IMG/VR virus record: IMGVR_UViG_2695420589_000010 | From: a virus | Lineage: Duplodnaviria; Heunggongvirae; Uroviricota; Caudoviricetes | DNA length: 4,660 nt | Direction: 5' to 3' (one strand) | Shown here: piece by piece, positions 1-4,660 of the stretch | How the letters are laid out: each line of letters opens with the position of its first letter | How positions within the stretch are numbered: the first letter of the stretch is position 1 | The notes under the pieces: model-generated | Databases searched by the model: none | Told to the model about the DNA's origin: nothing | What the model saw: the letters and a program-made list of their open reading frames with translations, nothing else | Position numbers and translations under genes: made by a program

Positions 1-410
1 ATTATCTGAACATAAAACACTATCAATAAGTTGGAGTCATTACCTGCGCCCCCCTGTGGAATGTAGTAATAACGTTCCATAACGCGGGCACGCCATATTT
101 CCAGNNNNNNNNNNNNNNNNNNNNNNNNNNNNNNNNNNNNNNNNNNNNNNNNNNNNNNNNNNNNNNNNNNNNNNNNNNNNNNNNNNNNNNNNNNNNNNNN
201 NNNNNNNNNNNNNNNNNNNNNNNNNNNNNNNNNNNNNNNNNNNNNNNNNNNNNNNNNNNNNNNNNNNNNNNNNNNNNNNNNNNNNNNNNNNNNNNNNNNN
301 NNNNNNNNNNNNNNNNNNNNNNNNNNNNNNNNNNNNNNNNNNNNNNNNNNNNNNNNNNNNNNNNNNNNNNNNNTACGCCATCCCAGCGCACAAATCCCCG
401 GGCTGCCACC
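1..410 (-). CDS. Part of the baseplate gene downstream of the GP46-like gene (expected Mu gp47 / baseplate J-like); mostly masked, frame and ends unresolved
   Basis: Synteny only: in Mu-like modules gp47 follows gp46. Of the visible bases 1..104, two minus frames stop at 40..42 and 23..25, while the third is open to the window edge. All three frames are open in the island 374..410. The N-runs 105..373 (269 nt) and 411..790 (380 nt) are not multiples of 3, so frames cannot be linked. Confidence 0.3.
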
Positions 411-790: not shown

Positions 791-1122
791 AGTGCCAGCG
801 AGTCTGTCCCGGTCCGGACAGCGTTAATATCAAGACGGGAAGCAACACCATCCTCCACCATCCACGCCAGCGCCTCACGGACATAATCTCTGGCAAGCTG
901 CGGGGTTTTATTTGTCAGCTTGCTGCGTCGCAACAGATACAAACGCGACCCCGTGCGATCATTCTGAACCGCAGGCCAGGTATCCCCCCACCATCCAAAT
1001 ATCCGTGGTGCATCATCACGCCCGGCACGCCGCCATGTAAAAAGCGAAATAATCACAGCACGCGTCAGAAGGTCGATCGAAGCCCCGGTCGACACGGGTC
1101 GCCCGTTAACATTAATCATCAT
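791..1122 (-). CDS. Mu gp46-like (GP46 family) baseplate protein; N-terminal ~110 aa visible, 3' end lost in masked gap
   Basis: ATG at 1122..1120. The translation ...AVIISLFTWRRAGRDD...GWWGDTWP...GSRLYLLRRSK...EALAWMVEDGVA matches, from memory, the conserved GP46 pattern (VIISLFTDRRA / GWWGD / GSRLWLL / EDGVA). Position immediately after the gp45-like gene fits Mu order. The 360-aa ORF 40..1122 in the track is an artefact of reading through N-runs. Confidence 0.65.
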
Positions 1123-1127
1123 GATTT

Positions 1128-1661
1128 TCAGCCCATCGGTTGATCCGGCGTGTCAGTGATCCCGCCACCATCACCATTTTCGGTATGTTTGTGGGCATTG
1201 TAGGCCTGCCGCATTTGCTGCATGCTGAGTCCGCCACTGTCGCAATTGTCAGTAATATCGGCGGTGGATTCGACTGGCATTTCAAAGCGCGCTTTAGGCG
1301 CGTTTTTAAAAATTATGGCCTTCCCGGCCCCGTCCACCACAATACCGGAACGGGTCAGGACAACGGACTGTCCCAGATCGTCATAAAGCGCCACTTCCCC
1401 ACGTTTCAGTCCTTTCAGCCGGTAACGTCTGTCAGCCACGACCACAACCACACCATGAGAACGATCGCCCGCCGGAAATAAAGCAACGCCCTCAGCACCG
1501 TTCTGTGCGGCAGATGTAAAACCATAAGGTTCAAGGTGCTCAACGTGTTGTTTCTGATCTCCGGCTATCATTTTCAACCCTACAGACTGACACTTTCTGG
1601 CGGAATCCACCGCCGTGATGACAGCCCGGGAAATCAGATTACGAAGAGAAAACCCGTTCAT
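1128..1661 (-). CDS. Mu gp45-like baseplate spike / baseplate assembly protein V family
   Basis: 177-aa ORF with ATG at 1661..1659, preceded by a strong RBS. Size and position (after the hub gene, before the GP46-like gene) fit Mu gp45. Contains a C-terminal His-x-His (HKH, 1185..1193), as at the metal-binding apex of Mu gp45-type spikes, followed by a Gly-rich tail. Confidence 0.8.
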   Translation of the reverse strand: MNGFSLRNLISRAVITAVDSARKCQSVGLKMIAGDQKQHVEHLEPYGFTSAAQNGAEGVALFPAGDRSHGVVVVVADRRYRLKGLKRGEVALYDDLGQSVVLTRSGIVVDGAGKAIIFKNAPKARFEMPVESTADITDNCDSGGLSMQQMRQAYNAHKHTENGDGGGITDTPDQPMG

Positions 1662-1668
1662 CAGAAAT

Positions 1669-1675
1669 CCTCCTC
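1669..1675 (-). promoter_or_regulatory. Shine-Dalgarno GAGGAGG for the gp45-like gene, overlapping the stop codon of the hub gene
   Basis: Minus-strand sequence is ATGTTGAGGAGGATTTCTG-ATG. GAGGAGG lies 7 nt upstream of the ATG at 1661; the hub gene stop TGA (1674..1676) falls inside it. Confidence 0.55.
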
Positions 1676-2738
1676 AACATTTTTTTCTTCCTGGCGGTAA
1701 CAGGCTCGGGGAGATAAGCATNNNNNNNNNNNNNNGATAAGCATCTGCCGGGCCAACCCGTAATTCAGTCGTCGTGCCCCGGTCGTCCTGGTTATAGGTA
1801 ACTTCTGCGATCACCAGTTCATCATTATCAAAATTATTCAGCGGGTCGAAAACGATGACAGATAACCCCGGACGCCATAACGCGCCACTGCCCTGCCGCC
1901 AGCCCTGAACCGTATATGTTGTCTCACGGGTAAGCGCAGCCCGTTGGCGCGCTTCAAATTCACAACGGGCCTTACAGGTTGCTGTCGTTGCTGTGCCTGA
2001 CTGCTGAATCAACAAAGGGCGATAACGGGTCACGCCACTGTCCTGAATGGTCTGACGTATTGCGGCAATGGTGGCCTCACCAAAATCATCGTCGTTGCCC
2101 GGGCGCTGCCCACTGACCTGATATTCAGAAAACCGCTCTCTGATGCTTCTTTCCGTGTCACAGGAAAGAATATTCTCTCCCAGCACCAGCGCCGTCGCCG
2201 CTTTACCTGTTCCGGGTTTTCCCAGAACCAGTCGCCCGCATTCATCGTCATAAGCCAGCGTCTGAACCTGCCCCAGTAACCGGTTAAGACAATCGGCAAC
2301 GGTTTCGCCGTGTTCCGGCTGGGCATCAATCACCGCTGTCTGCGGCACGCCAGCATCAACAACGGTGATGCCAAATGGCGCAGCCAGTTCACTGACTATT
2401 CTGAGCAGGTTTTTTCCGCTCTGCTGGAGTGGCAAAGCAGAGCAGTCAACCAGATCGGCTGTTTTGCTTCGCCCGACAATTCCCATGCTGACGCTGCTGG
2501 CGTCATAACGAAGCGGTAGTGCCTCCACATATCCGGTGAGCACAGGCTCATCCCCGATAAGCACTTCAACCAGCTCACCATTTTTTATCCGGGGTTGATA
2601 ATCCCGGCTTCCGGGCCAGCGGGTGGTAATGGCAACATTAAAATCCCGGGCAATACGGTTAATGCCCGCACTGATACGGACGGATGTCCAGCCGCCCCAT
2701 TCGCGACCGGAAACCCGAAGTAAAACGGTATCATTCAT
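1674..2738 (-). CDS. Baseplate hub protein, Mu P/gp44-like (phage late control D family)
   Basis: 354-aa ORF. Its start ATG (2738..2736) overlaps the stop TGA (2737..2735) of the upstream DNA circulation gene as ATGA. Size and position between the DNA circulation gene and the gp45-like gene match Mu P. The last ~15 codons lie beyond a 14-nt N-run (1722..1735), so the C-terminus as translated (MLISPSLLPPGRKKC) is not reliable. Confidence 0.75.
   Translation of the reverse strand: MNDTVLLRVSGREWGGWTSVRISAGINRIARDFNVAITTRWPGSRDYQPRIKNGELVEVLIGDEPVLTGYVEALPLRYDASSVSMGIVGRSKTADLVDCSALPLQQSGKNLLRIVSELAAPFGITVVDAGVPQTAVIDAQPEHGETVADCLNRLLGQVQTLAYDDECGRLVLGKPGTGKAATALVLGENILSCDTERSIRERFSEYQVSGQRPGNDDDFGEATIAAIRQTIQDSGVTRYRPLLIQQSGTATTATCKARCEFEARQRAALTRETTYTVQGWRQGSGALWRPGLSVIVFDPLNNFDNDELVIAEVTYNQDDRGTTTELRVGPADAYXXXXXMLISPSLLPPGRKKC
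1713..1744. repeat. 9-bp direct repeat GATAAGCAT flanking the 14-nt masked gap 1722..1735
   Basis: Read directly: 1713..1721 and 1736..1744 are both GATAAGCAT. Most simply explained as a contig-end overlap or duplication artefact at an assembly gap. Confidence 0.85.
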
Positions 2739-4250
2739 CTGACGGGTACCCTTAATGCCCTGACCGGAACAAAGCCCGGATGAGAGATGGCATTTCGATC
2801 CAGGATATCAGTTTCACGGGACGCATCGTCGTACCATGACGCAGCCAGAACAAGCGCAGGCAGAACTTCCGCTGGCGTTCGCTCTGCGGTTTCCTCCGTC
2901 TGAACCAGACGCGCCTGAATATCCCGGTTCAGTTCTGTACGTAATGACGTCAGCTGAAAAAACAGCCTGTCATCCGCCGTACGCCTGAGCTCCTGTTCAA
3001 TCGCCGCGTTCAGCGATTCGCGTATGATGGTGAGATTTTCCCGCGTGGGTGGTTGCGCTCTCTCATCCTGTCCTGTGCTGGCTGCCACGCTGTCAAGTGC
3101 CGGATGAGAAACGTGAATAATATCGGACTGACGTTCAGTGGAACCACCAACAGCCACAACCGCCTGCTGATTTTTCACCAGGCTTCCGGGTTGTGGCAGT
3201 GAAGTGACCGCCCTTGTGGCTTCGCTGATTGCCGTCGTCCGGATGACAGCAGCCACAAGGTTTGTCTGCTGTTTTTGCCTGATAACCGATGCGGAATCTG
3301 TGGGCCACACCGCACGCGGTGCCAGTCCTGGGTCCAGCGTAATGCCGGACATTGTCGTTATGGACTGCACCAGATCCTGTGTGTTATCCACCAGCCGGGT
3401 TCCGGCCCGCCAGGTATCCTGCAACGTATGCACAAAATCACTGGCAACCGACGGCGGCATCAGAATGACGGATAAATCGCCCTGCAGTAGTCTCGCTCCG
3501 GCAGAAACAGCCGAATTAACCATTTTGAAAGCTGTCTGAACGGTNNNNNNNNNNNNNNNNNNNNNNNNNNNNNNNNNNNNNNNNNNNNNTATCGGTCGTC
3601 CGGGCAATAACATCGTTCTGAATAAAGTCCGGTATTCCCGCGAGATCAAAATCGCCGAACATGTCTTCAATCAACTCATCCAGGAATACGGACGACTCCT
3701 CCAGTTTTCTGGCGGTTGCAGCTCCGGCGACNNNNNNNNNNNNNNNNNNNNNNNNNNNNNNNNNNNNNNNNNNNNNNNNNNNNNNNNNNNNNNNNNNNNN
3801 NNNNNNNNNNNNGGCGACCGGAAATGACAGTTCCCCGCTCTCAACAAACTGAAATGAAACCCGGCACATACGGCCTTCAGTGCCGGAGTGAGAAACGGTC
3901 ACCTGCCCGTCAATACAGCCCTGCATTTCACCGAACTGCGGATGGATCAGCGTCCCCGGCCCGGCGGTTTCAATCGCTGTAATCAGCCTGTCGCGCTGCT
4001 CTGCGTAATCATCACCAACGAGATACGCATTAATCGTCAGCCGTCGCGTGGCACGCCCGAGATCTTCCGTGTACGGTTTGTCACGGTTTGGGTATTCATG
4101 GACCTGAACGCGGCGTCCGAACGAACCCTCGTCGCTCTCCACCGAAAACGGAACGCCACGAAATGAAGCGTCGTAAAGATTATCGCGCCAATTGATACCT
4201 GAAGATGCAGAAAAGAGTGAAGAAAGAGAAGGTAAAGAAGGTAAGTCCAT
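2735..4250 (-). CDS. DNA circulation protein (Mu N/gp43-like); reading frame breaks across masked gap 3545..3589
   Basis: The N-terminal ORF (3516..4250) carries the signature I recall for the DNA circulation N-terminal domain: NWRDNLYDASFRGVPFSVES...GRRVQVHEYPNRDKPYTEDLGRATRR...GDDY. ORF 2735..3670 is protein-like only below the gap (TVQTAFKMVNSAVSAGARLLQGD...) and ends ATGA-coupled to the hub gene. Above the gap only the 3516..4250 frame looks coding, so this is one gene with a frame switch inside the N-run. Confidence 0.75.
4227..4244 (-). repeat. Perfect in-frame tandem 9-bp repeat (AGAAGGTAA x2 on +, TTACCTTCT x2 on the coding strand) at codons 3-8 of the DNA circulation gene
   Basis: Read directly: 4227..4235 equals 4236..4244. 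Encodes LPS-LPS within the N-terminal peptide MDLPSLPSLSSLFSASSG, inside a ~50-nt purine-rich (+ strand) tract. Confidence 0.9.
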
Positions 4251-4255
4251 ACTGT

Positions 4256-4259
4256 CTCC
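4256..4259 (-). promoter_or_regulatory. Shine-Dalgarno GGAG for the DNA circulation gene
   Basis: Minus-strand sequence is ATAGTGGAGACAGT-ATG; GGAG lies 5 nt upstream of the ATG at 4250. Confidence 0.5.
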
Positions 4260-4263
4260 ACTA

Positions 4264-4290
4264 TAAAAAAACCGCCAATTTCTGGCGGCT
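4264..4290 (-). terminator. Rho-independent terminator downstream of the AT-rich ORF
   Basis: Minus-strand RNA reads AG-CCGCCA-GAAAU-UGGCGG-UUUUUUU-AUAG: a 6-bp GC-rich stem (plus a possible G-U closing pair), 5-nt loop, and a 7-U tract. It starts 7 nt after the stop codon at 4297..4299. Confidence 0.65.
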
Positions 4291-4296
4291 TATATA

Positions 4297-4660
4297 TTAA
4301 TCATCATTAATATCTTTCATATTCAATTTGCAATTTTCGTAGGTCACTCCCGACTCGCCATTAACATTAACTCCAGCTCTGATATTCCCGTTTTCTTTTA
4401 CATCTACAAAAAACTGGCCTCTTGGCATCTTGAACGCAAATGTAAAACCAACAGTATCTGAATCAAAATCATCATCTTTATATATTGGGATCAAAAATGT
4501 CATCGTCGCTGGTGATGCATTGTTTGCAAAATCAAATACACCTATACTTTTGCCGAATTCATAAGAAGCTTTTCTCAATATAATCGCACCGCTGGCAGAA
4601 GGGGATGGGCACGATATCCTCAGTTGTCTGAATCCATCTGTATCCAAGTCAACGTCATTA
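4297..4660 (-). CDS. Hypothetical protein, 5'-truncated by the window edge; AT-rich accessory (moron-like) gene
   Basis: The frame is open from the window edge to TAA at 4297..4299 (>=121 codons). The TTG 'start' at 4647 in the track is arbitrary; the true start is beyond 4660. Four 60-nt blocks give 33-37% G+C against 52-60% in the tail genes. The translation (...GVFDFANNASPATMTFLIPIYKDDDFDSDTVGFTFAFKMPRGQFFVDVKENGNIRAGVNVNGESGVTYENCKLNMKDINDD) is protein-like and probably beta-rich with an acidic C-terminus; I recognise no family. Confidence 0.55.
   Translation of the reverse strand, partial: NDVDLDTDGFRQLRISCPSPSASGAIILRKASYEFGKSIGVFDFANNASPATMTFLIPIYKDDDFDSDTVGFTFAFKMPRGQFFVDVKENGNIRAGVNVNGESGVTYENCKLNMKDINDD

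Follow-up and report, generated by a model that had tools for sequence, protein, structure and literature searches.

How are essential baseplate genes expressed when a strong terminator stands directly in front of them? The question arises in a 4,660-nt stretch of a tailed-phage record (IMG/VR IMGVR_UViG_2695420589_000010; hereafter the window), where a hairpin and a U-run lie immediately upstream of the Shine-Dalgarno (SD) sequence of a DNA-circularization gene (Table 1). An earlier note, made from the letters of the window, had concluded that this arrangement leaves no room for a promoter. It proposed that the downstream genes are expressed by read-through or antitermination from upstream or from a promoter inside the adjacent AT-rich gene, or that a leaky terminator tunes tail-gene dosage.

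Table 1 Features of the window (all coordinates are window positions)
Feature	Position	Strand	Remarks
IS1, terminal 43 nt	1..43	.	100% matches to annotated IS1 family transposase
Baseplate J/gp47 gene, fragments	44..410	-	Mostly masked; 44-104 is a 100% match to J/gp47 genes
GP46-family baseplate gene, visible 5' part	791..1122	-	PF07409, E 2e-29; rest masked
Baseplate assembly protein V (Mu gp45-like)	1128..1661	-	PF06890, E 2e-26
Baseplate hub gene (Mu gp44/P-like)	1674..2738	-	GpP-like_1st, Gp44-like_2nd, GpP_4th
DNA-circularization gene (Mu gp43/N-like)	2735..4250	-	PF07157, Pfam DNA_circ_N, E 5e-37
SD (GGAG) of the DNA-circularization gene	4256..4259	-	5 nt past the U-run, 5 nt ahead of ATG
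Seven-U run	4265..4271	-	First three U able to lengthen the stem by pairing with AAG
Terminator stem-loop	4269..4291	-	5' arm 4291..4283, loop GAAAU 4282..4278, 3' arm 4277..4269
Moron ORF, 3' 364 nt	4297..4660	-	Low-GC inserted gene; stop TAA 4299..4297; runs off the right end of the window

A strong predicted terminator abuts the ribosome-binding site

Read on the minus strand, the segment runs TAA, TATAT, AAGCCGCCA, GAAAT, TGGCGGTTT, the T-run, ATAGT (4264..4260), GGAG, ACAGT and ATG (4250..4248). The stem has 9 bp, including 5 G-C pairs and one G-U wobble, with a 6-bp G+C core (CCGCCA, 4288..4283, against UGGCGG, 4277..4272) and a loop of 5 nt. It begins 5 nt past the stop codon of the AT-rich ORF, which is the position of a terminator for that gene. 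The free-energy calculation that the earlier note had called for gives a minimum of -13.3 kcal/mol (z = -3.7 relative to dinucleotide-shuffled sequences; of 200 such sequences, 1 folds equally well). The hairpin is the best-ranked terminator-like site in a consensus scan of the window and the only minus-strand site there with d>=0 in a d'Aubenton-Carafa-type score, at d = +27 to +32, values that are approximate because the formula was applied with modern energies. By these measures the hairpin carries all the sequence features of a strong intrinsic (Rho-independent) terminator, with transcript 3' ends predicted at about 4266..4263. In two related loci the T-run has 6 T rather than 7.

Sequence, fold and scan thus agree that a terminator hairpin abuts the ribosome-binding site of the DNA-circularization gene. 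The closeness claimed by the earlier note stands, although the distance from the U-run to GGAG is 5 nt and not about 4, and no usable promoter fits between them. A TATAGT hexamer on the minus strand at 4260-4265, between the U-run and the SD, matches the -10 consensus at 5 of 6 positions. It is probably a chance match: it is paired with only a poor -35, other lineages do not conserve it, and a transcript starting there would be without the SD.

The hairpin closes an inserted gene

The DNA-circularization gene, which had been taken for the first tail gene, lies mid-operon: genes for the sheath, tube, chaperone and tape-measure protein (TMP) stand upstream of it, outside the window, in a co-directional head-tail cluster. 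The backbone belongs to the phiP27/ST64B/SfIV group and combines an HK97-type head with a Mu-type tail; at the 3' end of the tape-measure gene, identity is 96% to phiP27 and 73-75% to ST64B/SfIV. Masked N-runs (107-373, 411-790, 1722-1735, 3545-3589 and 3732-3812) preserve neither length nor frame, so that the DNA-circularization gene shows as two ORFs that differ in frame. Between the start codons of gp44 and the DNA-circularization gene, the window is 124 nt longer than L001, the corresponding locus of E. coli FDAARGOS_944. Inside the tail-assembly-chaperone gene of that locus (L001 18121-18135, minus strand), a small hairpin precedes TTTTTTA; chaperone genes of this kind typically have a programmed -1 frameshift site, and this may be one.

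The region 3833-4660 of the window was searched against 5,426 complete E. coli genomes. The DNA-circularization gene is present in 50 of them, and 11 of the 50 also carry the AT-rich ORF and the hairpin; in the remaining 39, homology ends 4 nt ahead of the ATG, at about window position 4254. L001, which matches the window exactly over 3833-4660, has the complete ORF (483 nt, 160 aa) between the tape-measure and DNA-circularization genes. This allele reads TMP-TGA, a 67-nt leader, ORF, hairpin and GGAG, with about 640 nt between the two tail genes. The TMP stop and the ATG are only 15 nt apart (TAA TAATGGGGTATCAGA ATG) in L002, a prophage lacking the insert, and in phage phiP27; phiP27, ST64B and SfIV have neither insert nor terminator at this junction. 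The insert comprises about 590 bp with a GC content of 0.36-0.39, against 0.50-0.59 in the flanks on either side. Insert-bearing and insert-less alleles are 95-98% identical at the nucleotide level in their DNA-circularization, gp44 and tube genes. Their tape-measure genes are only 83% identical, and the slot is therefore also a mosaic boundary. The SD itself is part of the insert: homology with insert-less relatives restarts only at about 4254, and these have GGGG in place of GGAG. The AT-rich gene and the hairpin are thus one inserted unit, a point absent from the earlier note, and the hairpin is the 3' end of this inserted moron rather than an element of the tail operon.

The ORF evolves under purifying selection (dN/dS about 0.1-0.3) and is a real gene. 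Its product, a secreted protein of family phrog_5586, carries a Sec signal peptide and two conserved Cys and is predicted to fold as an 8-stranded beta-barrel. Morons are defined as DNA that is extra relative to related phages, deviates in GC content, carries its own promoter and terminator and is expressed from the repressed prophage (PMC3594210). The insert shows four of six such features (sensu Juhala/Hendrix): extra DNA, deviating GC, a terminator by sequence and no role in the virion. The last, which extends to lysis, is indicated indirectly by its absence from near-identical tail modules, by the Sec signal peptide and by homologs on plasmid-like contigs without tail genes. No sigma-70 promoter was found ahead of the gene: in every lineage, the best -35/-10 candidate was equalled or exceeded in 0.41-0.73 of shuffled sequences, and a consensus scan of the 47-77 nt non-coding leader returned no promoter. 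The promoter that the earlier note had considered inside the AT-rich gene was not found there either, and its transcripts would meet the same terminator.

The terminator accompanies the gene in diverged lineages

Homologs of the moron are few, with 9 clusters in a collection at 90% identity and 19 matches in an exhaustive profile search. Those of a Yersinia enterocolitica prophage, phage vB_EcoM-720R4, P0010, P0013 and P0014 are 36-74% identical to the E. coli/Shigella protein, and that of P0022 is 33% identical; all six map to this part of the tail cluster, past the tape-measure gene. The insert again has a low GC content in four further tail-slot lineages (0.37-0.42, against 0.47-0.57 in the flanks).

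Four lineages occupying the tail slot each have a different hairpin, followed by 5-7 T and, 3-6 nt on, the SD of the DNA-circularization gene. Their junctions read AAGCCGCCAG-AAA-TTGGCGGTTTTTTT-ATAGT-GGAG in the window lineage, AAAAAACCGCG-TTTACA-CGCGGTTTTT-ATTT-GAGGTG in the 720R4 lineage, AAACCGCC-CAATTGA-GGCGGTTTTTT-ATT-GAGAGG in the Yersinia lineage and AACCCGC-TTCG-GCGGGTTTTTTT-ATGCC[CT]-GGAG in the P0010/P0013 lineage. The corresponding stem cores are CCGCCA/UGGCGG, CCGCGU/ACGCGG, CCGCC/GGCGG and CCCGC/GCGGG. The proteins of these terminator lineages share 49-71% amino acid identity, or 39-40% for P0010/P0013. When the hairpins are aligned from the stem base, both partners have changed (compensatory changes) in 4 of 6 core pairs, and all positions remain paired, in this small sample of four lineages. 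Because the arrangement recurs in four diverged lineages with different stems, it is more than chance.

Three more distant homologs (24-29% identity) are found on plasmid or phage-plasmid-like contigs encoding IncFII RepA, ParA, MazEF and a cI-like repressor. Two of these (P0021 and P0024) have their own hairpin and T-run, while the third has a hairpin without a proper T-run. In the tail slot, P0014 and P0022 have no hairpin; their upstream spacers are 16 and 2 nt long, and the downstream spacer of P0014 is 17 nt. All lineages with a terminator have an upstream leader of 47-77 nt. This co-occurrence is as expected for an autonomous unit whose promoter and terminator are gained and lost together.

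The divergence of the moron tracks that of the adjacent DNA-circularization gene (49 versus 52% and 71 versus 68% amino acid identity), and the moron therefore appears from these sequences to be an old resident of the slot, gained and lost by recombination, rather than a recent hopper. The slot can hold more than one accessory gene, since in one metagenomic lineage (L029 2387-2974) a HIRAN-domain gene lies between the tape-measure and beta-barrel genes.

The leaders and products also vary. Lineages 1 and 3 encode a lipobox-like L-[TI]-S-C motif, whereas the protein of lineage 2, that of phage 720R4, is soluble. Directly past the tape-measure stop of two lineage-2 loci (L016 and L021, at about 1265-1290 in the latter), the moron leader contains a perfect 10-bp inverted repeat, AACCCTACTT-TAATC-AAGTAGGGTT, which is partly degraded in 720R4 itself. 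Downstream of this repeat, 23 nt before the ATG, is a possible extended -10 (TGgTAAAGT); the repeat could be an operator or promoter element. Shortly ahead of the gene, two plasmid homologs (L024 at about 2870-2895 and L028 at about 700-725) have in common a conserved AT-rich element, TTATTT(T)AAATAAATATTTAAT, which may likewise be a promoter or operator.

Late transcription is probably terminator-resistant before it reaches the tail genes

In insert-bearing and insert-less prophages alike, a Q-family antiterminator gene is encoded upstream of the lysis, head and tail genes and on the same strand. An intact insert-less prophage (L013) has a Q gene with a PF06530 match (E 7e-46) and, in the interval from Q to the terminase genes, 4-5 predicted terminators on the coding strand; Q is also annotated in L014, where it is frameshifted, and in L031. 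In phage 720R4, where both moron and hairpin are present, there is a Q gene with one predicted terminator 125 nt downstream of it and a second near the lysis genes. Since these relatives encode Q and have 2-5 predicted terminators between it and the terminase genes, their late transcription is probably already terminator-resistant when it reaches the tail genes. A region of L013 at 23080-25187 may be an accessory or defence islet.

Predicted terminators are rare within the structural genes. Over 23.7 kb of L001, from the tail-fibre to the terminase genes, the moron hairpin is the only coding-strand site with d>=10; the moron terminator is likewise the only one predicted in the structural region of 720R4, and the head and tail genes of insert-less L002 have no coding-strand site with d>=10. 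Antitermination from upstream, with the Q gene and several pre-terminase terminators of relatives behind it, is the best supported of the options offered by the earlier note.

Weighing the readings of the hairpin

Taken together, we estimate a probability of roughly three in four that the hairpin is the Rho-independent terminator of a moron residing in a Q-antiterminated late operon. A cassette of about 590 bp, consisting of a 47-77 nt leader, the gene for a 160-aa secreted beta-barrel and the terminator, would have taken the place of the original 15-nt spacer at the TMP/DNA-circularization junction, and this replacement would be the reason why the terminator abuts the replacement SD. In the lysogen, the terminator would end transcripts that cover the moron, so that they do not enter the baseplate genes. 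In the lytic cycle, polymerase that Q has modified at the late promoter would ignore the moron terminator as it does those upstream, and the baseplate genes would be carried on a single long late transcript; because the modified polymerase reads through, they would need no promoter of their own. Several observations count against this reading. No promoter rises above shuffled sequence in any lineage, and autonomous expression is a defining trait of morons; Q lies outside the window and is frameshifted in the one genome identical to it; co-divergence with the DNA-circularization gene and near-constant residence in one slot are features of a slot-bound accessory gene; and two lineages have lost, or never had, the terminator.

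The same observations feed the reading in which the ORF is an accessory gene of the late operon, for example a periplasmic factor produced in lytic growth only, and the hairpin an mRNA-stabilising or processing structure or a relic. The want of a convincing upstream promoter, the shared divergence with neighbours in what is nearly always the same slot, and the tight fit of the gene within the operon in P0014 and P0022, where spacers measure 2-17 nt and the hairpin is absent, all suit it. We nevertheless regard it as improbable: every hairpin lineage keeps an unbroken run of 5-7 U, which termination needs and stabilisation does not, compensatory changes maintain the structure, and the hairpin lineages also have leaders of 47-77 nt. 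Moreover, the ORF is intact where structural and Q genes are broken by insertion sequences and frameshifts, suggesting selection in the lysogen.

Distinctly improbable, in our view, is a leaky terminator or attenuator that sets transcription of the low-copy baseplate genes below that of the sheath, tube and tape-measure genes upstream, which are high-copy. The hairpin does sit exactly between the tube/sheath/TMP block and the baseplate block, and the juxtaposition of terminator and ribosome-binding site is kept in four lineages. Against this, baseplate modules that are 95-98% identical (L002 and phiP27) work without a terminator at the junction, and two lineages have this gene in this slot but lack the hairpin, so that the dosage tuning suggested by the earlier note is not needed. 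Plasmid homologs also have a terminator, which is therefore tied to the gene rather than to the tail operon; Q-modified polymerase would be expected to ignore the hairpin, and an effect on dosage, if any, would be incidental. Highly improbable is a bidirectional terminator, one blocking antisense (plus-strand) transcription into the tape-measure region as well. On the plus strand the same stem folds at -10.4 kcal/mol and is listed by the consensus scan, and the hairpin of lineage 2 is symmetric (A6-stem-T5, with d = +28 on the opposite strand), making it the only lineage with a U-run past the stem on both strands. In the window, however, the plus-strand tail (CTTATATATT / CUUAUAUAUU) scores d = -38, below even d>=0, so the weak plus-strand activity that the earlier note had allowed for finds no support in this sequence. 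Nor does any plus-strand gene or promoter-like site converge on the hairpin, which lies within more than 25 kb of genes that are all on the minus strand.

The moron is intact in decaying prophages

The first 43 nt of the window occur at 50,319 places in 4,364 E. coli genomes. This IS1 end cuts gp47 at junction 43/44, where gp47 is intact in the otherwise identical locus of FDAARGOS_944; the prophage in this genome is therefore defective, and its terminator would probably serve only the moron. In FDAARGOS_944, ISEc60 splits both the sheath and the portal gene, and the terminase and Q genes are frameshifted (L001 18740-21540 and 25408-27953; L014 2869-3557), yet the moron ORF has stayed whole. 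The DNA-circularization gene is interrupted about 55 nt in by a sequence that begins GGTAAT and is probably IS1 in two further genomes, Shigella flexneri SFBU1023 and E. coli ECMA0423 (L004, at about 4553, and L005); the moron and terminator upstream are intact. In such decaying prophages the terminator can serve only the moron, and the intact moron suggests retention, or selection, in the lysogen. Beyond the tail-fibre end of L001 (3947-6572) are a SAM-dependent methyltransferase gene and a frameshifted T3SS effector gene, ipaHe, which together are Shigella-type cargo in a strain labelled E. coli.

Relation to known systems

A moron terminator that Q most likely allows late transcription to pass is an ordinary arrangement and a known one. 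As in lambda (pR'-tR') and other lambdoid late operons, a PF06530 Q gene in the related prophages stands upstream of co-directional lysis, head and tail genes and is soon followed by predicted terminators. The sites at which Q acts vary between Q families. The prototype moron, HK97 gene 15, lies in the tail operon beside the tape-measure gene (Juhala et al. 2000; Cumby et al. 2012; reviewed in PMC3594210). It resembles the present insert as a single small gene of deviating GC beside the tape-measure gene in the tail part of a lambdoid late operon, missing from close relatives, with its own terminator and a product targeted to the cell envelope. The HK97 gene, however, is upstream of the tape-measure gene and not downstream, has a recognised promoter, and encodes an inner-membrane YebO-like protein with demonstrated superinfection exclusion; the candidate moron described here encodes a sequence-unrelated secreted beta-barrel, in a phage with a Mu-type contractile rather than siphoviral tail. 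In P22, the ant moron upstream of the tailspike gene has been proposed to influence read-through into the downstream structural gene (PMC2629481). Both occupy a fixed late-operon slot that varies by gain and loss across many related phages, but the P22 moron comprises several genes, regulatory ones among them (mnt, arc, ant, sieA), whereas here a single gene is joined to a simple terminator. The P22 case is a precedent for a leaky terminator, yet one that is not required here because near-identical modules work without a terminator.

In predicted fold class and periplasmic location, the product is similar to PliC/MliC lysozyme inhibitors and other small 8-stranded beta-barrels (avidin/lipocalin-like), and the contrast between lipobox-like lineages 1 and 3 and soluble lineage 2 parallels that between MliC and PliC. 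Membership in the PliC/MliC family was considered and rejected, as no sequence match or strong structural match was found. A bolder reading, which we hold to be possible but unlikely, is that the secreted beta-barrel, a long-standing occupant of the slot that stays intact in decaying Shigella/E. coli prophages, is a new periplasmic superinfection-exclusion or inhibitor protein acting against incoming contractile tails, and that the juxtaposed terminator and ribosome-binding site, preserved across four lineages, are a selected insulator rendering the baseplate genes strictly dependent on Q-modified polymerase.

The apparent paradox of a strong terminator right before essential baseplate genes would thus be explained by the well-known principle of moron-borne terminators that Q-modified RNA polymerase ignores. 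Members of phrog_5586 and their distant relatives, plasmid-borne ones included, are candidates for an accessory function expressed by lysogens of Shigella, E. coli and Yersinia, a modest lead. The natural alleles with and without the terminator offer a set for testing whether Q-type antitermination insulates structural operons from such cassettes.
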